Shown one piece after another: positions 381 to 36,700 of a stretch of 37,013 bases of DNA; within the stretch, counting starts at the first letter, position 1; each line of letters begins with the position of its first letter. The notes below the pieces were generated by a model. The model did not search any database and had not been told where the DNA came from. It saw only the letters and a list, made by a program, of their open reading frames with translations. The stretch is from IMG/VR virus record IMGVR_UViG_2531839666_000012, one strand, 5' to 3'. The stretch comes from a virus. Lineage: Duplodnaviria; Heunggongvirae; Uroviricota; Caudoviricetes. Position numbers and translations under genes: made by a program.

Positions 381-743
381 ATGCTCATAGATTTGGTTTT
401 ACCTTACCCGCCGACGGTGAACACTTACTGGCGACGCCGTGGCAGCACATATTTTGTATCAAAAGCCGGGGAGCGTTATCGCCGGGCAGTGGCGCTTATT
501 GTTCGCCAGCAGCGACTGAAATTAAGCCTGTCCGGACGGCTGGCAATAAAAATTATTGCAGAGCCACCGGATAAGCGCCGCCGTGACCTGGACAATATTC
601 TGAAAGCACCGCTGGATGCGCTGACGCACGCGGGGTTGTTAATGGACGATGAGCAGTTTGATGAAATCAATATTGTACGTGGCCAGCCAGTATCTGGTGG
701 ACGGCTGGAGATAAGAATTACAGAGGTGGGTGTGCATGAATAG
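381..743 (+). CDS. rusA: RusA-family Holliday junction resolvase
   Basis: 120 aa; N-terminal LPYPPTVNTYW, catalytic RRRDLDN motif and C-terminal GGRLEIRITE match recalled E. coli RusA; SD AGAGGTGA 7 nt upstream of ATG 381. Confidence 0.85.
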   Translation: MLIDLVLPYPPTVNTYWRRRGSTYFVSKAGERYRRAVALIVRQQRLKLSLSGRLAIKIIAEPPDKRRRDLDNILKAPLDALTHAGLLMDDEQFDEINIVRGQPVSGGRLEIRITEVGVHE

Positions 744-1425
744 CCAGTATTTACAGTTTGTTCGTGAGCAACTCATGATTGCCACTGCGGATCTCAGTGG
801 GTCGACAAAAGGCCAGCTGGAAGCCTGGCAGGAAAATGCCCTGTTCGATACAGGGCGTTACAGACGTAAAAAAATTCGTTACCGCGATGAGGTAACCGGA
901 AAAATGATCACGCGGGATAATCCACCGATCCCGGGCAAACAATCACTGGCGAAAGGGACGTCAATTGCTCTGGTCAGTCCGGTTGAGTTTGCAACATCAT
1001 CGTGGCGGCGTGCCGTTCTGGAACTGGAAGAACATCAGAAGGCGTGGTTACTGTGGTGCTACAGTGGAAATGTTTGCTGGGAAGATCAGGTCACCATAAC
1101 ACAGTGGGTGTGGAGTGAATTTAAAACTCAGTCCGGCTCCAGAAAAATTGCAGTGAAAACGCTGGAGCGTGTGAAGAAGTTGATCTGGCTGGCGGCACAG
1201 GATGTCAGAGGATGGGTTACCGGGTGTGAGGTCTACCAGAGACAGGAGCTTGCCAGACTGTGTGGAGTTAAGCCTGATAACTGGAGCCATAATTATGCGA
1301 ACTACTGGCGTGAGATGTGCGATATTTTTAAGCGCCTCGATAGAGAATCCTTGATTTGCTCCGTGAAAATAAGAGCGCAACAAAAAGCGACCTTTTCACG
1401 ACGAGATATTGCAAAAGTCAATTAA
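736..1425 (+). CDS. Q: Late-gene antitermination protein Q (Phage_antitermQ-like)
   Basis: About 230 aa ORF directly after rusA and before terminators and late genes; SD GAGGTG 7 nt upstream of ATG 736; family assignment is by synteny and general resemblance, not a verified alignment. Confidence 0.6.
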   Translation: MNSQYLQFVREQLMIATADLSGSTKGQLEAWQENALFDTGRYRRKKIRYRDEVTGKMITRDNPPIPGKQSLAKGTSIALVSPVEFATSSWRRAVLELEEHQKAWLLWCYSGNVCWEDQVTITQWVWSEFKTQSGSRKIAVKTLERVKKLIWLAAQDVRGWVTGCEVYQRQELARLCGVKPDNWSHNYANYWREMCDIFKRLDRESLICSVKIRAQQKATFSRRDIAKVN

Positions 1426-1485
1426 ATCGCGTATGTTTCGTATAAATCTGATATTTTGCCGATTTTGTACGCGATGGCAAAGTAA

Positions 1486-1514
1486 GAAAAAACCACCGCC
1501 AGGTGGTTTTTTTT
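1486..1514 (+). terminator. Rho-independent terminator (candidate tR') downstream of Q
   Basis: Hairpin aaCCACCgccaGGTGGtt followed by an 8-T run. Confidence 0.5.
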
Positions 1515-1637
1515 ATGTCCGAAAATCTCGTCAGTACAGTAAACGCGCTGGTGGTGGTGAATACCGGTCTTTCAGCTTGCTGGCTTTTTTGACAAGAGTT
1601 ATTGGTGTGTCACGTTAACCGGAAAAGGGAAAAAGAC

Positions 1638-1835
1638 ATGCTGAAACAGCAGGATATGACAGAAACCGCCAGAGTGGTGTTTAATGAATTAAGTGCCACC
1701 GAACCGGCGACAGTCGGGGAGATTGCGCAGAATACTTATCTTTCACGTGAACGCTGCCAGTTAATACTGACCCAGCTTGTTATGGCGGGTCTGGCAGACT
1801 ATCAGTTCGGTTGTTACAGACGCCTTCAGTCCTGA
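1638..1835 (+). CDS. Small hypothetical protein (65 aa)
   Basis: ATG at 1638 with SD AAGGGA 7 nt upstream; terminator immediately after the stop; no recognised family. Confidence 0.4.
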   Translation: MLKQQDMTETARVVFNELSATEPATVGEIAQNTYLSRERCQLILTQLVMAGLADYQFGCYRRLQS

Positions 1836-1849
1836 AGGCTTTTTTATTT
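1822..1849 (+). terminator. Rho-independent terminator
   Basis: Stem GCCTTCAg/tGAAGGC with loop tcc, followed by TTTTTTATTT. Confidence 0.5.
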
Positions 1850-1985
1850 GTGGTAAATGGGCGGCTGGTGGGTGTTAGGGGCACTCACCAGCCATCTGCT
1901 CATGCGTCCGGATCACAAGCAAACCTCAGGCCCACTGCTTTGCGCAAAAGCAGAATGAGCCTATCAGAGACAGGCTTAATGATCC

Positions 1986-3044
1986 ATGCTTAATACTGTA
2001 AAAATATCCAGTTGTAAGTTAATCAACGCCGACTGCCTGGAATTTATCCGGTCGTTACCCGAAAATTCTGTTGACCTGATAGTCACGGACCCGCCGTACT
2101 TTAAAGTGAAGCCTGAGGGCTGGGATAACCAGTGGAAGGGCGACGATGATTACCTGAAGTGGCTGGACCAGTGTCTGGCGCAGTTCTGGCGGGTGCTGAA
2201 ACCTGCCGGAAGTCTTTACCTGTTCTGTGGCCATCGCCTGGCATCTGACATTGAAATCATGATGCGTGAACGCTTCAGTGTGCTGAACCATATTATCTGG
2301 GCGAAGCCGTCCGGACGCTGGAACGGGTGCAACAAGGAAAGCCTGAGGGCGTATTTCCCCGCCACAGAGCGCATTCTGTTCGCGGAACATTATCAGGGGC
2401 CGTATCGTCCGAAAGATGCCGGGTATGAGGCGAAGGGCAGGGCACTGAAACAGCATGTGATGGCCCCGCTGATTGCTTACTTTCGTGATGCACGTGCTGC
2501 CCTGGGGATAACGGCAAAACAGATTGCTGATGCCACAGGAAAGAAAAACATGGTGTCGCACTGGTTCAGTGCCAGTCAGTGGCAGCTACCGGACGAAAGC
2601 GATTATCTGAAATTACAGGCGCTGTTTGCCCGGGTGGCAGAAGAGAAGCATCAGCGCGGAGAACTGGAAAAGCCACATCACCAACTGGTCAGCACATACA
2701 GTGAACTGAACCGACACTATACGGAACTGCAGAGTGAATATAAGCATCTGCGGCGGTATTTCGGTGTGACGGCGCAGGTGCCGTACACCGATGTGTGGAC
2801 GCATAAACCGGTGCAGTACTATCCCGGGAAACATCCGTGCGAAAAACCGGCAGAAATGCTGCAGCAGATAATCAGCGCGAGCAGTCGTCCGGGTGACCTG
2901 GTTGCAGATTTTTTCATGGGGTCGGGTTCGACAGTCAAAGCAGCGATGGCGCTGGGGCGTCGTGCAACTGGCGTTGAGCTGGAGACTGAACGTTTTGAGC
3001 AGACGGTCAGGGAAGTTCAGGATTTAGCCAGTCAGAACGGATGA
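1986..3044 (+). CDS. DNA methyltransferase, N6_N4_Mtase (beta-class) family
   Basis: 352 aa; motif IV IVTDPPYF near the N-terminus and motif I FFMGSGST near the C-terminus (order IV then I). Confidence 0.8.
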   Translation: MLNTVKISSCKLINADCLEFIRSLPENSVDLIVTDPPYFKVKPEGWDNQWKGDDDYLKWLDQCLAQFWRVLKPAGSLYLFCGHRLASDIEIMMRERFSVLNHIIWAKPSGRWNGCNKESLRAYFPATERILFAEHYQGPYRPKDAGYEAKGRALKQHVMAPLIAYFRDARAALGITAKQIADATGKKNMVSHWFSASQWQLPDESDYLKLQALFARVAEEKHQRGELEKPHHQLVSTYSELNRHYTELQSEYKHLRRYFGVTAQVPYTDVWTHKPVQYYPGKHPCEKPAEMLQQIISASSRPGDLVADFFMGSGSTVKAAMALGRRATGVELETERFEQTVREVQDLASQNG

Positions 3045-3084
3045 TATTGCAGGATTAGTTACGTACCGTTATTATCCTGCGCCC

Positions 3085-3160
3085 GGCCCTTTAGCTCAGT
3101 GGTGAGAGCGAGCGACTCATAATCGCCAGGTCGCTGGTTCAAATCCAGCAAGGGCCACCA
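3085..3160 (+). tRNA. tRNA-Ile2 (anticodon CAU, lysidine type; ileX/ileZ-like)
   Basis: 76 nt cloverleaf: acceptor GGCCCTT/AAGGGCC, anticodon loop CTCATAA, T-loop TTCAAAT, encoded CCA; near-identical to recalled E. coli ileX. Confidence 0.8.
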
Positions 3161-3167
3161 TCACATA

Positions 3168-3244
3168 CCGCCATTAGCTCATCGGGATAGAGCGCCAGCC
3201 TTCGAAGCTGGTTGCGCGGGGTTCGAGTCCTCGATGGCGGTCCA
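3168..3244 (+). tRNA. tRNA-Arg (anticodon UCG)
   Basis: 77 nt; acceptor CCGCCAT/ATGGCGG, anticodon stem CCAGC/GCTGG with loop CTTCGAA, T-loop TTCGAGT, encoded CCA. Confidence 0.75.
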
Positions 3245-3257
3245 TTATCTGTACACT

Positions 3258-3334
3258 GCGTTGTTAGCTCAGCCGGACAGAGCAATTGCCTTCTAAGCAA
3301 TCGGTCACTGGTTCGAATCCAGTACAACGCACCA
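3258..3334 (+). tRNA. tRNA-Arg (anticodon UCU, argU-like rare-codon tRNA)
   Basis: 77 nt; acceptor GCGTTGT/ACAACGC, anticodon stem ATTGC/GCAAT with loop CTTCTAA, T-loop TTCGAAT, encoded CCA. Confidence 0.8.
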
Positions 3335-3419
3335 CACTTATTTTTCCTGGCTCGCTTTTGTGGGCCTTTTTTGCCTCCGCGCCACGCCCGGCGCATATCA
3401 ACCACAGAGCCTTTCACAA

Positions 3420-4355
3420 ATGGTTTTTCAGGAGTCCAATAATCGCGATGTCGCCAGAAAATACGCAGAGTACATCACGTCCGTTCCTTTGCGTCGGTTT
3501 GTCGCTGAAAAAGTGCGGGAATATTGTGGTGATCTGCCCCTGAGTATTTTTGATGGTGCGTGTGGCTCCGGGCAACTGGAGCAGTTTCTCACGGTGGGAA
3601 GTCTGTATGCTGTGGATATACAGGCCTCTCCGTTGGTGCATATCCCGGATAATTTCCCGGATGCCACAGTGAAGACGGTCAATGAAAATTTCTTCAACGC
3701 CATCGATGATGTCAGTGACACGGACACGTTCGATTGTGTCATCATGAATCCGCCTTTTTCGCTACAGTACAAAGCACAGAGCGCGGATATCAGGGAGAAG
3801 ATTTCAGCGATGATGCCTTATAAAAAGACCTCCGGTGTTCTGGATGACGCGTTTTATGTTCTGGCGAGCATGAAGGCAAGATTTTCATTTTTTTTGTGCT
3901 TTCCCGGGGTTGGTTACAGGCGTGGTGAGCTGGCAATGCGTCAGTATTTTGGCAACCGCGTTGTTGAGTTGGTTCAGATTTCAGGCGGGTTCGCTGATAC
4001 ATCGGTTTCTGTATTATTCGTCATTATTGATAACGAAAAGCAAAGCGATGATGTTGTTGTTTATGGCGTCGGGTTTAATGGGGAAACTTGCAAAAAGTCA
4101 GCGCCGGTGACGGAGAAGATTAACACAGACAACTGGAACAGGCCGTACATTGCTGAAGAGAAGGAGGTCATTGACATTGTACAGGTGACGGCTGAGTTGC
4201 TTGTAAGGCAAACAAGAAGACGGAAACTTGAAGATGAGCATAACGCCTTTGTGTGGTCCTTAATGAGTGATGATCAGCGGACGGAGGTTTCCCGTTTTCT
4301 GTCAGTGCACGGTTTGTTTTTTGATGCCGGTTCAGGTTGTGTGCACATACGTTAA
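3420..4355 (+). CDS. N6-adenine DNA methyltransferase (gamma-class), no adjacent restriction enzyme
   Basis: Motif I FDGACGSG then motif IV VIMNPPFS; start uncertain (ATG 3420 or GTG 3360, both lack a clear SD). Confidence 0.7.
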   Translation: MVFQESNNRDVARKYAEYITSVPLRRFVAEKVREYCGDLPLSIFDGACGSGQLEQFLTVGSLYAVDIQASPLVHIPDNFPDATVKTVNENFFNAIDDVSDTDTFDCVIMNPPFSLQYKAQSADIREKISAMMPYKKTSGVLDDAFYVLASMKARFSFFLCFPGVGYRRGELAMRQYFGNRVVELVQISGGFADTSVSVLFVIIDNEKQSDDVVVYGVGFNGETCKKSAPVTEKINTDNWNRPYIAEEKEVIDIVQVTAELLVRQTRRRKLEDEHNAFVWSLMSDDQRTEVSRFLSVHGLFFDAGSGCVHIR

Positions 4356-5378: not shown

Positions 5379-6855
5379 ATGGCATTTAAACACTATGACG
5401 TGGTCAGGGCGGCGTCGCCGTCAGACCTTGCGGAGCGACTGACTCAAAAACTGAAGGAGGGGTGGCAGCCATTTGGCAGCCCGGTGGCCATCACGCCTTA
5501 TACCCTGATGCAGGCCATTGCGGCGGAAGGTGATGTCACCACACCTGTGGTGGTGAAGCCGTCGGATGGAGAAGGCACAGTTATCAGCGCCACCAGCGAC
5601 CCAGAGTATTACTACGTGATTACGCTGGCTGGCCAGTCAAACAGCATGGCATATGGTGAAGGCCTTCCGCTGCCGGAGACATATGACCGTCCGGACCCGC
5701 GTATTAAGCAGCTGGCGCGTCGCAGTACAGTGACACCGGGAGGTACTCCCTGTAAATATAACGACATCATTCCGGCAGACCATTGTCTTCATGATGTTGA
5801 AGATATGACCAGGCTAAAACCCCCCAAAGCTAAAGATGCAGAATACGGTTGTGTTGGCCAGGGTTTGCATATTGGTAAGAAACTACTGCCATTTATCCCT
5901 GCTAATGCAGGTATTCTGCTGGTCCCTTGTGGACGTGGCGGATCAGGCTTTAGTACCGGAACAGAAGGACAGTATTATGAAGCCTCTGGCGCAATCGACG
6001 CATCATCAAAATGGGGGCTTGGGACACCTCTATATAAAGATCTGGTTGCCAGAACCAAAGCTGCATTAGACAAAAACAAAAAGAACGTATTTCTTGGCGT
6101 TGTCTGGATGCAGGGTGAGGCAGATATGGCTGCCGGAAAACATGCAGAACACAATGCACTTTTCCTGAAAATGGTTGAAGGTTTCCGCACTGAGTTAGAG
6201 AAATATGATGCTCAATGCGTATATGGTAGTGCTGCGAAAGTCCCCTGGATTTGCGGCGATACCACGTATTACTGGAAAACCAAATACGCGTCTCAATATG
6301 AAGTTGTGTACGGTGGTTACAAAGGGAAAACGGATAAGGCTATTTATTTTGTTCCGTTTATGACGGATGAAAATAATGCAAATGTTACAACCAATAAGCC
6401 CGAGGAAGACCCGGATATTGAAGCTATTGGATATTATGGCTCCAAATGGCGTGATAGTTCAACAACATGGACGTCACAGTACAGAGATAGCCATTTTAGC
6501 TCATGGGCTCGTCGAGGTATCGTTTCGGATCGACTGGCAACAGCAATTGTAACCTATGCAGGTAAATCATCTGCCTTTGTGAATGGTATTACAGAAGTAA
6601 CAGCACCGGAAGAGGCGCCAACATCTTCTTCATCGCCAGCTTCTGAAGCTCATAATGAAGAAAATACGGTTGCCACTTCGGAGTCTGTCATTCTCTACGA
6701 TGCCAAAAAAGCTTCGGACAATCAGCTGAAACCTTATGGCTGGGACGGTATGGATGGCAGACGCACACTGGTTGATGACAGCGGCAATAAAGCTCTGCGA
6801 ATTGAGAAAAATAACAGCGCGAAATCCTGGTCAATGTACTGTGATATTGCTGCAG
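5379..6855 (+). pseudogene. nanS-p: nanS-p (prophage sialate O-acetylesterase), N-terminal part, interrupted by an IS
   Basis: DUF1737-like N-terminus, SGNH/sialate esterase motifs ITLAGQSNSMAYGEG and WMQGEAD; SD GGGAGG before ATG 5379; frame runs into the IS left end at 6856 and stops 29 nt inside it. Confidence 0.8.
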
Positions 6856-6909
6856 TGAATCGCCCCGGGAATCCTGGAGACTAAACTCCTTGAGAGAGAG
6901 GTAAACAGG

Positions 6910-7236
6910 ATGACTAAAAATACGCGCTTTTCCCCTGAGGTCCGTCAGCGGGCCGTTCGTATGGTTATCGAAAGCCAGAATGACTATGACTCGCAGTGGG
7001 CGGCCATCAGCTCCATCGCCCCTAAAATCGGCTGTACGCCTGAGACCCTGCGTACCTGGCTGCGTCAGTATGAGCGCGATGCCGGTGCAGGTGACGGCGG
7101 ACTGAGCACCACTGAACGTCAGCGTCTGAAGGAACTGGAGCGTGAAAACCGCGAACTGCGCCGCAGCAACGATATCCTGCGCCAGGCTTCCGCGTATTTT
7201 GCGAAGGCGGAGTTCGACCGCCTGTGGAAAAAATAG
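6910..7236 (+). CDS. IS3-family transposase OrfA (HTH/leucine zipper)
   Basis: 108 aa, [19 protein letters not shown]... matches recalled IS629/IS1203 OrfA; ends at an A6 slippery run (7228-7233). Confidence 0.85.
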
Positions 7237-8123
7237 CGCCTCTGGTGGATACCCTGCGTGGTGCGCACGGGGTCGGACCGGTATGCCACGAGCTGGCTGT
7301 CGCCCCGTCAACGTATTACCGGCATCGTGCGCATCAACGGCATCCGGATAAACGCAGTCAGCGGGCACAGCGTGATGACCTGCTGAAGCCGGAGATACAG
7401 CGCGTGTACGATGAAAACCACAGCGTGTACGGTGTGCGCAAGGTCTGGCGCCAGTTGTTGCGTGAGGGGGTGACCGTGGCCAGGTGCACAGTAGAACGGC
7501 TGATGAAGGTGATGGGGCTTGCCGGTGTGCGCCGGGGTAAAAAGGTCCGCACCACAGTCAGCCGGAAAGAAGCCGCTGCGGGTGACCGGGTGAACCGCCA
7601 GTTCGTGGCAGAACGCCCCGACCAGCTGTGGGTGGCTGACTTCACGTATGTGAGCACCTGGCAGGGCTTCGCTTACGTGGCGTTCATCATCGATGTGTTC
7701 GCCGGCGTCATTGTGGGCTGGCGGGTCTCATCGTCGATGAAAACGACGTTCGTGCTGGATGCACTGGAGCAGGCGCTGTGGGCCCGTCGCCCGTCGGGCA
7801 CCATCCATCACTCAGATAAGGGGTCACAATATGTGTCGCTGGCATACACTCAGCGGCTTAAGGATGCAGAGTTGCTGGCGTCAACCGGCAGCACAGGCGA
7901 CTCATATGACAACGCGATGGCGGAGAGCATCAACGGACTTTATAAAGCGGAGGTGATACATCGTAAGAGCTGGAAAAACCGCGCCGAAGTGGAACTGGCC
8001 ACACTGACGTGGGTGGACTGGTACAATAACCGACGGTTGCTGGAACGACTGGGTCATATCCCGCCGGCAGAAGCGGAAAAGGCATATTACGCTTCCATCG
8101 GAAATGGTGGTCTGGCAGCCTGA
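7224..8123 (+). CDS. IS3-family transposase OrfB (DDE catalytic domain)
   Basis: 299 aa in the -1 frame relative to orfA, overlapping its 3' end; likely made as an OrfAB fusion by programmed -1 frameshift. Confidence 0.85.
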
Positions 8124-28300: not shown

Positions 28301-28630
28301 AACCTGAGTGCATACAGTAACAGTATTGTGGACACGCCCACGTACTTTGCCTTTGCAAAAGGGGCAGGGCTGATGGGGGAAGCCGGACCTGAAGCCATCA
28401 TGCCCCTGACCCGGGCAGCGGATGGTTCACTCGGCGTGCGTGCGGTGGGCAGTATGAACGGCAGTGCGGGTCTGGTGTATTCCCCGGTGTACCACATTGC
28501 CATTCAGAATGACGGCGCTAACGGGCAGATAGGGCCGGAAGCGGTGGGCACCCTTGTGCAACTGATTGACCAGCGGGTACAGGCGGTGATGTTATCCATG
28601 CGTCGTGACGGAGGAATGCTGAGTGGATGA
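25388..28630 (+). CDS. H: Tail tape measure protein (lambda H-like)
   Basis: 1080 aa, Ala/Gln-rich coiled-coil composition; C-terminal region resembles recalled lambda gpH; between G/T and M. Confidence 0.9.
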   Translation: MATLRELIIKISANSQSFQSEIQRASRMGSEYYRTLQDGGRQAAAAAREQRRALAELNSQLTEIRASAVGMTGAFAGAFATGHLISLADEWSSVNARLKQASQSSDEFSSSQKVLMDISQRTGTAFSDNAALFARSAASMREYGYSADDVLKVTEAISTGLKISGASAAEAGSVITQFSQALAQGVLRGEEFNSVNESGDRIIRALAAGMGVARKDLKTMADDGQLTADKVVPALISQLGILRDEYAAMPETVSDGITKVENAFMAWVGGANEASGATKTLSGALNGVAGNIDTVATAAGVLVAVGVARYFGNLASGAMSATAGLVTAARNEVALAEAQLRGTQIATARARAAVYRAQQAVAAARGTEMQIAAEARLAVTQERLNRNIAARTAAQNALNSTTAVGSRLMSGALGLVGGVPGLVMLGAAAWYTLYQNQEQARESARQYALTIDEIAHKTPSMSLPEASDNEGRTREALTEQNRLIDEQASRVKSLQEKIAGYQYVLANPGWTTGNGFMINHLTSVKTVTEELAQATEQFAVEQSRLAQMQEKAQSIQDVLAGLEERRVVLIRQQAAEQNKAYQSLLVMNGQHTEFNRLLGLGNELLQQRQGLASVPLRLPQATLDDKQQGALNNTERQLALSRLKGEEKERARLGYAADDLGLVGDTYQEARQRYIRNSMEAWRNNEANKPKSRGGKSETEKAEDSFSRLLKQQKEQLALAGKNTELAKLKYQTSQGELKTLTEIQKQELLRNAALIDQKKIRVLLRAREETLKNDNADARASNDAELLGYGQGERVRERMRELQQIRDGYRQKDANLQSQYQTGDISEDFYRQALAQNAQYLSERLKDQEAFYAESDAQRADWQKGLQEGLSNWVDSASDYASQAAQLATDGISGMVNNITEMLNGNKVEWRSWAASILQEISKVLMNVAIVNGIKMAANSMSGAGGFFGSIGNWLGGAVANAKGGVYTSANLSAYSNSIVDTPTYFAFAKGAGLMGEAGPEAIMPLTRAADGSLGVRAVGSMNGSAGLVYSPVYHIAIQNDGANGQIGPEAVGTLVQLIDQRVQAVMLSMRRDGGMLSG

Positions 28631-28964
28631 GATTAAGACCCTTCACTGGTGTCCCCGGGAAGGGATGCAGGTGACGGAGAAACCGTCGGTGGTGACGGTG
28701 AAGTTTGGCGACGGTTATCAGCAACGTCGTCCGGCAGGACTGAATGCGCAACTGAAGACCTTTCAGGTGGTTTTTCGGGTGACAACGGATGCTGAGCGGG
28801 AGGCACTGTCCGCGTTTCTGTCATGGCATGGTGGTTACCGGGCTTTTTTGTGGAAGCCCCCGAAACATAACCGGACGGTCAGGGTGGTGTGCCGGGAGTG
28901 GAGTATTACGGATAACGCCCGGTACAGTGATTTCAGTTGCACGATAGAGCAGGTAGTCAGATGA
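28623..28964 (+). CDS. M: Minor tail protein M
   Basis: 113 aa matching recalled lambda gpM (VKFGDGYQQRRPAGLNAQLKT, HGGYRAFLWKPP, EQVV). Confidence 0.85.
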   Translation: MDEIKTLHWCPREGMQVTEKPSVVTVKFGDGYQQRRPAGLNAQLKTFQVVFRVTTDAEREALSAFLSWHGGYRAFLWKPPKHNRTVRVVCREWSITDNARYSDFSCTIEQVVR

Positions 28965-29048
28965 GAATTATCCTATAAATCACTCTTTATTGTTTAGTTG
29001 TTAATTATTTTTAATCTGTCTTGTCAGAAAGTGCGAAATCGATCTTGT

Positions 29049-29068
29049 ATTTACATTTTGTTACATAA
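29049..29068 (+). promoter_or_regulatory. OmpR-box-like element upstream of the porin gene
   Basis: TTTACATTTTGTTACATAAT in an AT-rich leader closely resembles the ompC/ompF OmpR-binding consensus. Confidence 0.4.
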
Positions 29069-29162
29069 TATAAATTGAACTAAGAATTTGTATTAAAATA
29101 TTTTAATTTTTGTTCATGACATCTGAATGCATGAATAGTTCAGTTTAAATAAGGATTAAATC

Positions 29163-30317
29163 ATGAAAAAAACGACAGTGGCACTTTCTGCTGTAGCAGT
29201 GGCAGTGATGTTTGCTGCGGGGGCGCAGGCAGCAGAAGTTTATAATAAAGATGGTAATAAACTGGATCTTTACGGGCGTGTAACCGCTCTGCATTACTTC
29301 TCGGATGATAAAGGTAATGACGGAGACCAGACTTATGCTCGTCTCGGCTTTAAAGGCGAAACGCAGATTAATGATCAACTGACCGGATTTGGTCAGTGGG
29401 AATACCAGTTCTCTGGTAACAAAACGGAATCTGAAGGTTCCGCGGGAAATAAAACCCGTCTGGCATTTGCAGGTCTGAGATTTGCAGATGTTGGTACCAT
29501 TGATTACGGACGTAACTATGGTATTGCTTATGATGTCGGATCATATACTGACGTACTGCCTGAGTTTGGTGGTGATGGCTGGACGCAGACCGATAACTTT
29601 ATGACGGCCCGAACTTCCGGTGTCCTGACTTACCGTAATACAGACTTCTTCGGGCTGGTTGATGGTCTGAATTTTGCGGCGCAGTATCAGGGCAAAAATG
29701 AGCGTGATGACCTTCAGAAGGCTAATGGCGACGGGTATGGTTTCTCGGCCAGCTATGAGTTTGATGGTTTTGGTTTTGTCGCTGCGTATACCAAGTCAGA
29801 TCGTACCGATAAGCAGGTTCAGGGGTTGAATGGTACTGCAGATGTTCTTGATCCTGAATCAGGTAAAAAGGTTGGAGAAAAAACAGTTGACTCAGGTAGT
29901 GTGGCAAAAGGTAAACATGCTGAATTCTGGGGAACTGGTCTTAAATATGATGCCAATAACCTGTATCTGGCAGCAGTGTATTCTGAAACCCAGAATATGA
30001 CGACCTTTGGTGATCAAGGTGTTGCGGATAAAGCTCAGAATATCGAAGCCGTTGTTCAGTATCAGTTTGATTTTGGTCTGCGCCCGTCCCTTGCCTACCT
30101 TCAGTCCCGCGGACAGGATGTTATGGTTGGTGGTGTGAACCATGGCGATCAGGATCTGGTTAAATATATTGATGTCGGTGCGACTTATTACTTTAACAAG
30201 AATATGTCCACCTATGTTGATTATAAAATTAACCTGATTGATGAAAGTGAATTTACCCGGAAAGCCGGTGTTGCGACAGATAATATCGTTGCTGTGGGTA
30301 TGACTTATCAGTTCTGA
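29163..30317 (+). CDS. Outer-membrane general porin, OmpC/OmpF/NmpC/Lc family (phage moron)
   Basis: 384 aa; signal peptide [38 protein letters not shown], the PEFGGD L3-loop signature, and terminal MTYQF. Confidence 0.9.
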
Positions 30318-30490
30318 TTATTGCTGATAAGTTAATAAATACGGGCCGTCTGCCCTTACAGGCGGCCTGTATCAATGAAAACACAGTTTTCATTGGTCAC
30401 TGCGATCAGCAATTGCCATCTGGCATGTGCTGATTTAACTTTCTGTTATTACCTTTATTGGTTTTATTTTAAATTGGACTTTTATTGTTC

Positions 30491-30514
30491 GGGGCGCGTC
30501 TGCGCCCCTTTTTT
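30491..30514 (+). terminator. Strong rho-independent terminator between the porin moron and L
   Basis: Stem GGGGCGC/GCGCCCC with loop gtct, followed by TTTTTT. Confidence 0.55.
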
Positions 30515-30526
30515 ATGGGCGGATAT

Positions 30527-31225
30527 ATGCAGGATATTCACGAAGAAAGCCTGAACGAGTCGGTTAAGTCAGAGCAGTCACCGCGGGTGGTGCTCTGGGA
30601 AATCGACCTGACGGTGCAGGGCGGTGAGCGGTATTTTTTCTGCAATGAGCTGAATGAAAAAGGGGAGCCGGTGACCTGGCAGGGGCGTGAATATCAGGCG
30701 TACCCGATTGAGGGCAGCGGCTTTGAGATGAACGGAAAGGGCAGCAGTGCCCGCCCGTCGCTGACGGTGTCCAATCTTTTCGGGCTGGTCACCGGGATGG
30801 CGGAGGATTTGCAGAGCCTGGTGGGTGCCACGGTGGTCCGTCGCCGGGTGTATGCGCGTTTTCTGGATGCGGTGAATTTTGTGGCAGGCAATCCTGAGGC
30901 AGACCCGGAGCAGGAGCTGACGGACCGGTGGGTGGTGGAGCAGATGTCATCGCTGACGGCCATGACGGCCTCGTTTGTGCTGGCGACACCGACGGAGACG
31001 GACGGTGCGCTGTTTCCCGGTCGCATCATGCTGGCGAACACCTGTATGTGGGATTACCGGGGCGATGAGTGCGGGTATAACGGTCCGGCAGTGGCGGATG
31101 AGTTCGACAACCCCACCACGGATATCCGGAAGGACAGATGCAGTAAATGCATGCGCGGGTGTGAGATGCGCGGCATGGCGGTCAATTTTGGCGGTTTCCT
31201 TTCCATCAATAAACTTTCGCAGTAA
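30527..31225 (+). CDS. L: Minor tail protein L
   Basis: Near-colinear match to recalled lambda gpL (MQDI..E.LNE, VVLWEIDL, GERYFFCNE, RIMLANTC.W.YRGDECGY.GPAVADE, FGGFLSINKLSQ). Confidence 0.9.
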   Translation: MQDIHEESLNESVKSEQSPRVVLWEIDLTVQGGERYFFCNELNEKGEPVTWQGREYQAYPIEGSGFEMNGKGSSARPSLTVSNLFGLVTGMAEDLQSLVGATVVRRRVYARFLDAVNFVAGNPEADPEQELTDRWVVEQMSSLTAMTASFVLATPTETDGALFPGRIMLANTCMWDYRGDECGYNGPAVADEFDNPTTDIRKDRCSKCMRGCEMRGMAVNFGGFLSINKLSQ

Positions 31226-33226: not shown

Positions 33227-33923
33227 GTGGGTAAAGGGGGCGGCAAGGGGGCACACACCGCGTGAGGCGAAGGACAATCTCAAATCCACGCAGATGATGA
33301 GCGTGATTGATGCCATTGGTGAGGGACCGGTGGAAGGTCCGGTGAAGGGACTGCAGAGTATTCTGGTGAACAAAACCCCGCTGACGGACACGGACGGTAA
33401 TCCCGTGATACACGGTGTGACCGCCGTCTGGCGCGCCGGGGAGCAGGAGCAGACACCGCCGGAAGGCTTTGAGTCCTCCGGGGCAGAAACCGCACTGGGC
33501 GTGGAGGTGACGAAGGCAAAGCCGGTGACGCGCACCATCACGTCAGCGAACATTGACCGTCTGCGGGTCACCTTCGGGGTACAGTCACTGGTGGAGACCA
33601 CCTCAAAGGGTGACCGTAATCCCTCTTCTGTCCGCCTGCTGATTCAGCTTGAGTGTAACGGGCACTGGGTGACGGAGAAGGATATCACCATTAACGGCAA
33701 GACCACCTCGCAGTACCTGACGTCTGTGATTCTGAATAATCTCCCTGAGCGCCCCTTTAACATCCGGATGGTCAGGGAGACGGCGGACAGCACCACGGAC
33801 CAGCTGCAGAACAGAACGCTGTGGTCGTCATACACCGAAATCATCGATGTGAAACAGTGCTGCCGAACACGGCCATTGTGGGGCTGCAGGTGGATGCGGA
33901 GCAGTTTGGTGGCCAGCAGCTGA
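33227..33923 (+). pseudogene. J: Tail tip / host specificity protein J, N-terminal part (frame disrupted)
   Basis: GTG 33227 with SD AGGAGA reads MGKGGGKGAHTA* and hits a stop after 12 codons; the J-like frame (HTPREAKDNLKSTQ.MSVIDAI...) is +1 from the G5 run at 33247-33251 and shifts again near 33862. Confidence 0.75.
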
Positions 33924-36700
33924 CGGTGAACTACCATATCCGTGGTCGCATCATTCAGGTGCCGTCAAACTATGACCCGGAAAAACGCACCTACAGCGGT
34001 ATCTGGGACGGGAGTCTGAAACCGGCATACAGCAATAACCCGGCCTGGTGCCTGTGGGACATGCTGACCCACCGCGCTACGGGATGGGAAAACGCCTGGG
34101 GGCCGCGGATGTGGACAAGTGGGCACTGTATGCCATCGGGCAGTACTGCGACCAGACGGTCCCGGATGGTTTCGGGGGGCACAGAGCCGCGGATGACTTT
34201 CAATGCGTACCTGTCACAGCAGCGTAAGGTCTGGGATGTTCTGGGGGATTTCTGCTCGGCGATGCGCTGTATGCCGGTATGGAACGGCCAGACGCTGACG
34301 TTCGTTCAGGACCGCCCGTCGGATGTGGTGTGGCCGTACACCAACAGCGATGTGGTGGTGGATGATAACGGCGTGGGGTTCCGCTACAGCTTCAGTGCCC
34401 TGAAGGACCGGCACACGGCGGTGGAGGTGAATTACACCGACCCGCAGAACGGCTGGCAGACTTCCACGGAACTGGTGGAAGACCCGGACGCCATCCTGCG
34501 CTACGGGCGCAATCTGCTGAAGATGGATGCGTTCGGCTGTACCAGCCGCGGTCAGGCCCACCGTGCCGGACTGTGGGTGATAAAGACAGAACTGCTGGAA
34601 ACGCAGACGGTGGATTTCACGCTCGGGTCACAGGGGCTGCGGCACACGCCCGGTGACATCATTGAAATCTGTGATAACGACTACGCCGGGACCCTGACCG
34701 GCGGACGCATCCTGTCCATGGATGCCGCCAGCCGTACCCTGACGCTGGACCGTGAGGTGACACTGCCGGAAGCAGGGACATCGACGGTGAACCTGATTAA
34801 CGGCAGCGGTAAGCCGGTGCGCGTGGACATCACCGCACACCCCGCCCCGGACCGGATACAGGTCAGCGTCCTGCCGGATGGCGTGGAGACATACGGTGTG
34901 TGGGGACTCTCCCTGCCGTCACTGCGTCGTCGCCTGTTCCGCTGTGTTTCCATCCGGGAAAACACGGACGGCACCTTTGCCATCACGGCAGTGCAGCACG
35001 TACCGGAAAAAGAAGCCATCGTGGATAACGGGGCCACCTTTGAGCCGCTCTCCGGTTCACTGAACAGCGTCATCCCGCCGGCTGTGCAGCACCTCACGGT
35101 GGAGGTGAGTGCCTCAGACGGCCAGTATCTGGCGCTGGCGAAATGGGACACGCCGCGGGTGGTGAAGGGCGTGCGCTTCAGTCTGCGCCTGACCAGCGGA
35201 AACGGTGAAAACAGCCGCCTGGTGACCAGCGCCATCACTGCCGACACGGAGCACCGTTTCAGTGGCCTGCCTCTGGGGGAATACACCCTGACGGTCAGGG
35301 CGATAAACAGCTACGGCCAGCAGGGCGAACCTGCCACCACCGCGTTCCGGATTAATGCGCCTGCAGCACCGGCCAGCATTGAACTGACGCCGGGGTATTA
35401 TCAGATAACAGCAGTACCGGTGCTGGCGGTGTATGACCCGACGGTACAGTTTGAGTTCTGGTTCTCGGAGGCAAAAATCGCAGACACATCTCAGGTGGAA
35501 ACCTCTGCCCGTTATCTGGGGACAGGCAGCCAGTGGAGTGTCTCCGGCCCGCACATTAAGCCGGGGAGGGATTTCTGGTTTTATGTGCGCAGCGTCAACC
35601 TGGTGGGGAAATCTGCGTTTGTGGAAGCCAGTGGCCGGGCGAGCAATGATGCGGAAGGGTATCTGGGGCTGTTTCGGGAAAAGATAGGAAAACTGCATCT
35701 GGCACAGGGGATGTGGGAGCTGATTGATAACAGCCAGCTTGACAATGAGATGGCGGAGATGAAGACCACCATCACCGAAACCCGCAATGAAATCACGCAG
35801 ACGGTCAGTAAAACCCTGGAAGACCAGAGCGCCACCATACAGCAGATACAGCGGGTGCAGACAGACACAAATAACGACCTGGCTGCGCTGTACATGCTGA
35901 AGGTGCAGAAAACAAAAAACGGCATTCCGTATGTTGCCGGTATAGGTGCGGGGATTGAGGATGCTGATGGCCAGCCCCTGAGCAATATACTGCTGCAGGC
36001 GGACCGTATCGCGATGATTAACCCGGAGAACGGCAACACCACGCCGCTGTTTGTGGCGCAGGGGAATCAGCTGTTCATGAACGATGTGTTCCTGAAGCGG
36101 TTGTTTGCAGTGAGCATCACCTCGTCCGGCAATCCCCCGACGTTCTCCCTGACGCCGGACGGCAGGCTGACGGCCCGTAATGCTGATATCAGCGGACATA
36201 TCAGTGCGAACTCGGGCACGCTCAATAATGTGACCATTAACCAGAACTGCCGGATACTTGGAAAACTGTCTGCCAACCAGATTGAAGGCGATATTGTTAA
36301 AACCGTGGGGAAGGCTTTCCCGCGGGACTCCCGCGCACCGGAGCGGTGGCCATCGGGGACCATTACCGTCAGGATTTATGACGATCAGCCTTTTGACCGG
36401 CAAATTGTGATCCCGGCAGTGGCTTTCAGCGGCGCTAAACATGAGAGAGAGCATAACGATATTTATTCATCATGCCGGCTGATGGTGAAATGTAACGGCA
36501 GGGTGCTTTTTGAAAGGACGGCGCTGGCTGAGTCTCAGGTGTATTCAGGGGTGATTGATATGCCTGCAGGAAGGGGGCATATGACGCTGGAGTTTTCTGT
36601 GTCTGCCTGGCTGGTGAATGGATGGTACCCGACAGCGAGTATTAGCGATCTGCTGGTTGTCGTGATGAAGAAGTCCACGGCGGGTATCGGTATTTCGTGA
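33821..36700 (+). CDS. J: Tail tip / host specificity protein J, main body
   Basis: 959 aa colinear with recalled lambda gpJ (e.g. [87 protein letters not shown]); contains one internal out-of-frame segment. Confidence 0.85.

Follow-up and report, generated by a model that had tools for sequence, protein, structure and literature searches.

A porin gene with an OmpR-box-like leader and an IpeX-like structured 3' element between tail genes M and L of a lambdoid Escherichia coli prophage

We analyzed the IMG/VR virus record IMGVR_UViG_2531839666_000012, a stretch of 37,013 nucleotides (nt) that we refer to as the window. It is a lambdoid Escherichia coli prophage, and around the element studied here its sequence is 100% identical to that of a prophage of strain FHI_NMBU_11 that is integrated at ompW. 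An original prediction, made from the sequence, had placed a complete porin gene with a signal peptide and the PEFGGD motif between tail genes M and L. We found that this gene is present: Porin_1 is matched over its full length, the motif is in place, and the flanking genes carry the Phage_min_tail and Phage_tail_L domains (Table 1). In the porin-less phage 2851, the stop codon of M overlaps the start codon of L and there is no spacer. Because both junctions could be aligned with phage 2851, the extra DNA can be set at about positions 28965 to 30526 (1,562 bp), exactly the block that had been predicted. The GC content within the block is 0.27 to 0.47, compared with 0.55 to 0.64 in the flanks. 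The block is thus a moron in the Hendrix/Juhala sense, an extra block of foreign base composition between adjacent genes with its own terminator. We call it the M-L cassette. It consists of a leader, the porin gene, a structured 3' element that ends in the terminator, and a new ribosome-binding site for L.

The insertion has cost L its translational coupling to M, and the cassette supplies a Shine-Dalgarno-like sequence in its place. We observed GGGCGGA, GGGTGGA, or GAGTGGA 3 to 6 nt before the ATG of L in five of six aligned alleles; allele L095 has ATGGATAAATATT there, without such a run. The junction itself is already known as a site for cargo. In Gifsy-2, a Lom homologue (ailT) and sodCI lie between the gpM and gpL homologues, at exactly the same junction and likewise as an insert of foreign composition between otherwise adjacent genes. 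The M-L cassette shares this moron architecture, including its own terminator, but its cargo is a porin plus a small RNA (sRNA)-like element, and sodCI of Gifsy-2 is on the opposite strand. The position had been described as unusual, and this holds for a porin but not for cargo as such.

The cassette encodes what appears to be an intact general-diffusion porin. The 384-residue product matches Porin_1 from position 1 to 337 of 337 (E 2.4e-144), and it scores 510 bits against a cutoff of 484 with the NCBIfam OmpC model, which defines a subfamily and not an equivalog. Its closest solved relatives are OmpC proteins (E 1e-132 to 1e-125; PDB 3upg OmpC, E 6.8e-132). An AlphaFold (AF2) model gives a 16-strand barrel with a predicted local distance difference test score (pLDDT) of 73, and the C terminus is YQF. 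The constriction loop L3 keeps PEFGGD in all full-length aligned alleles, while P0019 lacks the stretch through an internal deletion; P133, G136, G137, and D138 are invariant over 35 homologues. At the constriction positions of OmpF/OmpC (K16, R42/37, R82/74, R132/124, D113/105, and E117/109), this porin has R, R, R, R, D, and E. The open reading frame (ORF) is intact and without internal stops in nine of the nine M-L-type alleles translated. Between alleles, the ratio of nonsynonymous to synonymous divergence (dN/dS) is 0.04 to 0.06 in the barrel, at dS values of 0.5 to 1.4, and 0.15 to 0.20 in the surface loops. Allele differences and insertions or deletions of 0 to 25 residues are concentrated in L5 (residues 214 to 251, between model strands 203-213 and 252-264), with smaller changes in L1, L2, L4, and L6 to L8. 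These values point to strong purifying selection on the porin, with variation mainly in the surface loops and chiefly in L5.

The original prediction had assigned the porin to the OmpC family and likened it to the phage porins Lc of PA-2 and NmpC of DLP12. The first assignment holds only in the broad sense of the subfamily model. By gap-free identity the protein is nearer to Salmonella OmpD (73%) and PA-2 Lc (72%) than to K-12 OmpC (65%) or OmpF (62%), and the second comparison was well placed. As for orthology with OmpC, OmpC is not the closest paralogue, and the locus is a prophage tail operon instead of the ompC-micF locus. Identity, the signal peptide, the proximal leader, and the 3' region together argue that the porin is a sister lineage of Lc, NmpC, and OmpD. 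Its closest clade includes, besides Lc and NmpC, the genes named "OmpD" in many lambdoid E. coli phages; Salmonella OmpD belongs to the same clade but is chromosomal.

The M-L porins and the classical lambdoid porins occupy two separate positions. In all 41 loci with a porin of at least 77% identity (30 of them IMG/VR contigs), M lies upstream and L downstream on the same strand. In all loci with a porin of 69% identity or less, the gene takes the classical Lc/NmpC position, on the opposite strand between Q and the holin gene. In IMG/VR, identity falls from 84% directly to 69% between the two groups. The 41 M-L loci span at least two tail lineages, with M proteins as low as 47% identical and tape-measure proteins of two families. 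Of 5,426 complete E. coli genomes, 110 (about 2%) carry the full cassette with a coverage of at least 80%, always between M and L; the hosts are often Shiga toxin-producing E. coli. Among the carriers are NCTC9112, 2012EL-2448, 2013C-3033, and FHI_NMBU and JNEC-KY strains. Two different alleles occur in two prophages of the same genome in NZ_CP027586.1, NZ_CP027340.1, NZ_CP075632.1, and NZ_CP075665.1. One of the copies in 2015C-3121 appears in the annotation in two "porin" pieces and may be disrupted. The exact protein is found on 757 contigs, and its public name is solely "porin OmpC".

Searches beyond E. coli prophages did not reveal a donor. Among 185,579 species-representative genomes the best match was only 68% identical. 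An M-L-type porin was found in none of the 50,697 records of a phage-genome collection, where the best tblastn identity was 69%, and in the open-access literature we found no description of the cassette. The genome paper on enteroaggregative E. coli 042 reports an extra "phylogenetically distinct porin", Ec042-2121, found only in some pathogenic E. coli and of unknown function (PMC2808357). We did not find Ec042-2121 in one 49-kb stretch of the 042 genome; it may belong to the M-L lineage or to a separate cluster of 378-residue "porin" proteins (P0064, 66% identical).

Some alleles carry traces of rearrangement. In allele L095, which belongs to a different tail lineage, positions 2657 to 2800 between the M stop codon and the leader hold a 5' fragment of L followed by a 3' fragment of an HK97-type M. 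The arrangement has the look of a scar left by recombination, as would be expected if the cassette moves between tail types in this way, and mosaic combinations of leader and 3' element point in that direction too. In IMG/VR loci L117 and L118, a leader of the L096 type is joined to a 3' element of the type found in the window (the window type). These are mosaics, and recombination therefore also occurs inside the cassette.

The leader is AT rich, as had been predicted, and it contains a box, TTTACATTTTGTTACATAAT, that is close to the OmpR-binding sites of the host porin genes and nearly identical to F1 of ompF and C1 of ompC. The agreement with F1 was reached by 0.03% of 20,000 shuffles of the AT-rich leader itself, and no shuffle of the whole window gave a match to the F1/C1 pattern. 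All alleles share TTTAC, and the second half-site reads GTTACA, GAAACA (as in C1), CTTACA, or GTTGCA. The likeness to the region upstream of ompC extends 5' of the box (CTTG.ATTTACATTTTG). On its 3' side stands ATAAATTGAAC, similar by eye to ATAAATGAAAC of the C2 site, though the alignment leaves the two unpaired. The leader as a whole has diverged two to four times more slowly than the synonymous sites of the porin gene (Jukes-Cantor [JC] distance of 0.14 to 0.53, versus a dS of 0.55 to 1.4 in the adjoining coding sequence). OmpR control of the cassette is a reasonable expectation.

A putative promoter of its own can be placed in the leader in more than one way. The candidate TTGAAC/TATTTT pair, which is weak and falls below a 9/12 threshold, would put the OmpR-like box at about -62 to -43. 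In six aligned alleles TTGAA is invariant; of the AATATTTT block only AATA is, and one allele has a deletion there. A possible alternative layout has three OmpR-type sites followed by a -35 element near 29110-29121. Further downstream is a conserved block, ATGACATC...GAATAGTTCA, which is common to the Lc/NmpC leaders (TGACATC...AATAGTTCA) and in part to the 5' untranslated region (UTR) of ompF (CATCAATAGTTCC). This block may be either a 5' UTR or an alternative -35/-10 region. The distance from the box to the ATG is 112 nt, shorter than the roughly 180 nt in ompC.

The strong terminator that had been noted at the end of the cassette is present and conserved in every allele. However, it is only the end of a 197-nt structured RNA and not the whole 3' feature. 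The 209 nt from the porin stop codon to the L start codon are conserved in all alleles. The 3' element has a minimum free energy (MFE) of -78.2 kcal/mol (z -8.4) and folds into three hairpins, H1 to H3, followed by a linker of about 55 nt and the terminator. Standard pairs make up 98.7% of 454 pair cells (38 pairs in 12 distinct sequences), and 9 of the 38 pairs are changed on both sides, a number reached by 0 of 500 shuffles, with the qualification that the structure was derived from the same, mutually related sequences on which the pairs were counted. When the partners were slid by one to three columns, pairing fell to 37 to 46%. The strand is that of the porin (+), as judged from G-U pairs and from a covariance model that scored 244 bits on the + strand versus 17 bits on the - strand. 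JC distances of 0.06 to 0.33, versus a porin dS of 0.55 to 1.4, mean that the element has changed 4 to 11 times more slowly than synonymous sites. A 59-codon ORF that covers part of it (30375 to 30554) was rejected as coding, as alleles differ there by a 13-nt insertion or deletion in the H3 loop. An Rfam scan of positions 28800 to 30700 gave only a chance match to NsiR9 (E 0.33) and is uninformative, since the 3' region of PA-2 lc gives no match either.

The 3' regions of PA-2 lc and K-12 nmpC have the same layout (z -9.5), with three hairpins, an AU-rich linker, and a terminator. Shared with the M-L element are the linker motif CTTCTGTTAT...CC(C)TTTATT and a GGGGCG...CGCCCC terminator, which in Lc/NmpC reads GGGGGCG..CGCCCC and is positionally equivalent; the hairpin sequences have fully diverged. 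In a plain comparison with nhmmer, the profile of the 3' element matched the Lc/NmpC region only at the terminator, with an E-value of about 0.1. Because of this weak result, we built a structure-aware covariance model from M-L-type elements only. It matched every Lc/NmpC 3' region tested over the full length, from the stop codon and on the correct strand, with 35 to 39 bits and E-values (3e-6 to 2e-5) that are rough because the calibration was shortened. The model gave no match at the chromosomal porin loci tested and none in Gifsy-2. Likewise, neither the model nor nhmmer detected an IpeX-like 3' element at the Salmonella arizonae chromosomal locus, whose porin is 68% identical, or at Citrobacter and Enterobacter loci.

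From our reading of reviews, we take the lc/nmpC 3' region to be the source of the sRNA IpeX, for which Rfam has no model; a 2006 study by Castillo-Keller et al. is reportedly part of the basis for this placement. The M-L cassette would then be related to the Lc/NmpC-IpeX system and might work as that system does. IpeX is a repressor of ompC and ompF translation, and Hfq is required for at least some of its targets (PMC5069750; see also PMC7177473 and PMC3333887).

The linker, the stretch between H3 and the terminator, is predicted to be single stranded. Its invariant core, TTATTACCTT, is the complement of GAGGGU(U)AAUAA, a sequence common to the start regions of ompF and ompC. We compared duplex energies, calculated without regard to the accessibility of the target or the sRNA, with a background of 8,232 60-nt segments of E. 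coli DNA; the other duplex controls were mononucleotide shuffles. The window-type linker paired with K-12 ompC at -31 to -4 with -24.9 kcal/mol (0.02% of the background). The linker of the PA-2 lc 3' region, our positive control as the presumed IpeX, paired with the same ompC site with the same energy of -24.9 kcal/mol (0 of 8,232). A second allele type (L090/L096) paired in a different register, with ompC at -14 to +12 (-21.5 kcal/mol; 0.01% or less) and with ompF at -17 to +9 (-18.9 kcal/mol; about 0.1%). The window-type linker paired only modestly with ompF (-15.4 kcal/mol; 2.2%). By contrast, all M-L types paired poorly with the start region of their own porin gene (-6.2 to -7.6 kcal/mol; 30 to 81%, with the window type at -6.2 kcal/mol and 81%). 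That start region, AAGGAUUAAAUC, has diverged from GAGGGU(U)AAUAA, the sequence found in ompC and ompF, and lacks complementarity to the core. Among 5,426 genomes, 5,362 have the ompC target at 99% identity or more. The complementarity makes silencing of ompC a specific and testable hypothesis, but it does not prove it.

On balance, we lean toward the view that the M-L cassette is a self-contained lysogenic-conversion device, a diverged relative of the lambdoid Lc/NmpC cassette that would replace host OmpC and OmpF with a phage porin. In a lysogen, where the late operon is silent, the cassette would be transcribed from its own weak, activator-dependent promoter, with phosphorylated OmpR (OmpR-P) at the F1/C1-like box as the candidate activator. 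The transcript would stop at the terminator, and L, K, I, and J would stay off. The mRNA would yield the phage porin, and its 3' part would accumulate, probably after processing, as for IpeX. The linker, with its core UUAUUACCUU, could then base-pair with host ompC over its Shine-Dalgarno sequence and start region, as well as with ompF in some alleles, and block translation, while the start of the phage porin (AAGGAUUAAAUC-AUG) would remain unpaired and escape. The net result would be an exchange of OmpC and OmpF for a porin with a different, rapidly diversifying surface, owing to its variable L5. During lytic growth, Q-antiterminated transcription would pass the terminator, and L could be translated from the Shine-Dalgarno-like sequence that the cassette provides. 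Such a swap would alter the receptors of phages and colicins, antigenicity, and possibly permeability. The original prediction had guessed at an effect on phage receptor availability, and complementarity to ompC and ompF offers a concrete mechanism for one.

Several observations weigh against this view, in addition to the limits of the pair counts, of the covariance E-values, and of plain homology given above. On the RNA side, AU-rich seeds pair promiscuously, the window-type linker has only its modest pairing with ompF, and the identity of the lc/nmpC 3' region with IpeX is our own reading. According to a review, the action of IpeX does not rest on complementarity alone (PMC12197685). On the promoter side, a simple sigma-70 scan found no + strand promoter of at least 9/12 in the leader, and two layouts fit its sequence. 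With a GC content of 27%, the leader is a likely target of H-NS, and the cassette could be silent in many conditions. The relatives Lc and OmpD are controlled by cyclic AMP (cAMP)-CRP rather than OmpR, and in the PA-2 record the lc leader carries annotated CRP sites. The prophage in the window may itself be defective through a frameshift in J, which leaves the cassette unaffected. In sum, the anatomy, distribution, and selection of the cassette are solid, and its expression, OmpR dependence, and riboregulation are inferred.

The CRP sites can be set against the alignment. The annotated CRP site of PA-2 lc (positions 1363 to 1383 of locus L006) falls on the OmpR-like box of the M-L leader (window positions 29045 to 29069), and in that leader a search by eye saw no good CRP match. 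The shared position points to an exchange of one activator site for another, and the M-L cassette appears to be wired to a different regulator than Lc/NmpC. The two also differ in orientation, as the M-L cassette is co-oriented with the late operon, and in the protein, which is only 68 to 73% identical between the two and has a long, hypervariable L5 in the M-L lineage. Relative to the chromosomal porins, the fold, the L3 motif, and the constriction residues are those of OmpC and OmpF, but L4 is short and L5 long, and OmpC has the opposite arrangement.

The cassette could instead be a plain porin moron without a riboregulator, which we judge unlikely but consider the strongest of the alternatives. 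The 3' hairpins would then stabilize the mRNA against 3' exonucleases, the terminator would insulate the tail genes, and the complementarity would be a result of the shared descent of AU-rich start regions. Terminators and stabilizing stem-loops are common in morons, the IpeX region shows no significant homology at the level of plain sequence, and duplex prediction with AU-rich sequences is permissive. Pieces of the leader and 5' UTR are also common to porin genes, and some of the complementarity could therefore be historical. However, the invariant 10-mer lies in the single-stranded linker, which would have no stabilizing role. The linker also equals that of PA-2 lc in its ompC site and energy while sparing its own start region, and the covariance model recovers the Lc/NmpC 3' regions at full length. 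Finally, both allele types have retained a strong complementarity to ompC, each in its own pairing register. These points favor the porin swap with a regulatory RNA over a plain moron.

A mainly lytic role is improbable. Under this explanation, Q-antiterminated transcription from pR' would cover the cassette along with the late operon, and the cassette would serve to remodel the dying cell's envelope, for instance by removing or masking receptors on debris and vesicles and so sparing progeny phage. Q is present (730 to 1425), no consensus promoter was found, and the orientation with the late operon, unlike that of the opposite-strand Lc/NmpC genes, would fit. However, a strong terminator before L and a conserved activator-type box and leader would be purposeless under read-through alone, the cassette is intact in a prophage with a frameshifted J, and porin assembly and OmpC turnover are slow relative to a lytic cycle. 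The proposal that the block is a non-functional passenger, either a decaying copy of host ompC acquired by chance or an artefact of assembly or annotation, is very improbable and already contradicted by the data, for although public records name only a "porin OmpC" and the prophage has decayed elsewhere (the J frameshift and an insertion sequence [IS] in an esterase gene), the ORF is intact in every allele translated, constraint on the barrel persists at a dS of up to 1.4, the protein and the cassette recur on hundreds of contigs (757) and in 110 complete genomes, the non-coding flanks are conserved, and no donor porin above 68% identity exists among the species-representative genomes, with E. 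coli OmpC at only 65%.

We can also extend the porin-swap view, although we hold this extension tentatively and would not bet on it. The cassette may be an unrecognized mobile module for porin replacement that combines an OmpR-responsive promoter, firing together with host ompC, an L5-hypervariable porin, and an sRNA of the IpeX family with at least two seed types that spare their own mRNA. Recombination in M and L would carry it between tail modules that are not related, and it could allow escape from phages, colicins, and antibodies that target OmpC and OmpF. These host porins are the main entry for many antibiotics, the receptors of many phages and colicins, and major antigens. If the cassette does add a variable porin and silence the host porins, it could confound the prediction of host range in phage therapy and serology. 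It could also confound the reading of porin-based antibiotic resistance, since public records say "ompC". The story of IpeX, so far a one-off, would widen to a family of sRNAs that derive from phage 3' UTRs and have diversifying seeds. For the question of how a horizontally acquired gene evades the regulator that it brings along, the cassette would be a compact natural system.

Table 1. Positions of the M-L cassette, its parts, and its neighbors in the window
Feature	Position	Strand	Basis or remark
Tail gene M (gpM-like), upstream neighbor	28623..28964	+	Pfam Phage_min_tail, E 3.2e-33
Whole inserted cassette (moron)	28965..30526	+	Phage 2851 alignment, GC drop
AT-rich leader/regulatory region	28965..29162	+	Conserved over divergent alleles
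OmpR-binding-site-like box	29050..29069	+	17/20 to K-12 ompF F1, 15/20 to ompC C1
Candidate core promoter (weak)	29075..29104	+	By eye; TTGAAC 29075-29080, 18 nt, TATTTT 29099-29104
Conserved proximal leader block	29116..29142	+	Common to Lc/NmpC leader, partly to ompF 5' UTR
Shine-Dalgarno AAGGA of porin gene	29151..29155	+	7 nt before ATG; invariant in all alleles
Porin gene, 384 residues, intact	29163..30317	+	Porin_1 full length; PDB OmpC match
Signal peptide, 23 residues, AQA/AE cleavage site	29163..29231	+	Aligns with Lc signal peptide and mature N terminus of solved porins
PEFGGD motif, constriction loop L3	29559..29576	+	Read from sequence
Hypervariable surface loop L5	29802..29915	+	Between model strands
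Structured 3' element, candidate 3'-UTR-derived sRNA resembling IpeX	30318..30514	+	Fold, covariation, covariance model
Hairpin H1, 14 bp	30339..30372	+	4 pairs with compensatory changes
Hairpin H2, 10 bp	30373..30395	+	4 compensatory pairs; 100% of cells paired
Hairpin H3, outer stem of 7-8 bp, variable inner part	30404..30435	+	1 compensatory pair
Single-stranded seed candidate	30434..30461	+	Duplex energies, conservation; invariant core at 30446-30455
Intrinsic terminator GGGGCGC-GTCT-GCGCCCC + T6	30491..30514	+	Terminator scan; 7 G-C pairs; conserved in all alleles
Shine-Dalgarno-like GGGCGGA for L	30517..30523	+	Read from sequence
Tail gene L (gpL), downstream neighbor	30527..31225	+	Pfam Phage_tail_L, E 9.6e-93; TIGR01600; start codon set by phage 2851 alignment

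The rest of the prophage shows several further features. The tail tip gene J is split into overlapping ORFs at 33294 to 33923 (209 residues, with the FNIII-A_GpJ domain) and 33821 to 36700 (959 residues, the remainder). The split looks like a frameshift, and in the near-identical FHI_NMBU_11 prophage RefSeq flags both J and the portal gene as frameshifted. In other loci that bear the cassette J is intact, with 1158 to 1159 residues. The prophage in the window may thus be unable to make tails and yet it keeps the porin cassette. The C-terminal domain of J, with 50% identity to lambda J and as much as 90% to uncharacterized Shiga toxin (Stx) phages, allowed no call on the receptor.

A SASA-family (nanS-p-like) esterase gene in the region from 5379 to 8123 has an ORF of only 501 residues, followed by IS3-family transposase ORFs (6910 to 7236 and 7224 to 8123, with rve domains). 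The IS element seems to interrupt the esterase gene, and the insertion is apparently not in FHI_NMBU_11, where this gene has 1959 bp. Downstream of Q, the place of stx in Stx phages, are an N6/N4 DNA methylase gene (1986 to 3044), three tRNA genes (3085 to 3334; Met-CAT, Arg-TCG, and Arg-TCT), and a second putative methyltransferase gene (3360 to 4355); there are no toxin genes from 730 to 4355. Past the end of the window, downstream of the tail-fiber genes, the FHI_NMBU_11 prophage (L001, 31674 to 37841) encodes a protein with a YadA C-terminal domain and a 1330-residue autotransporter protease of the S6 family (SPATE type), which are further surface or virulence cargo.

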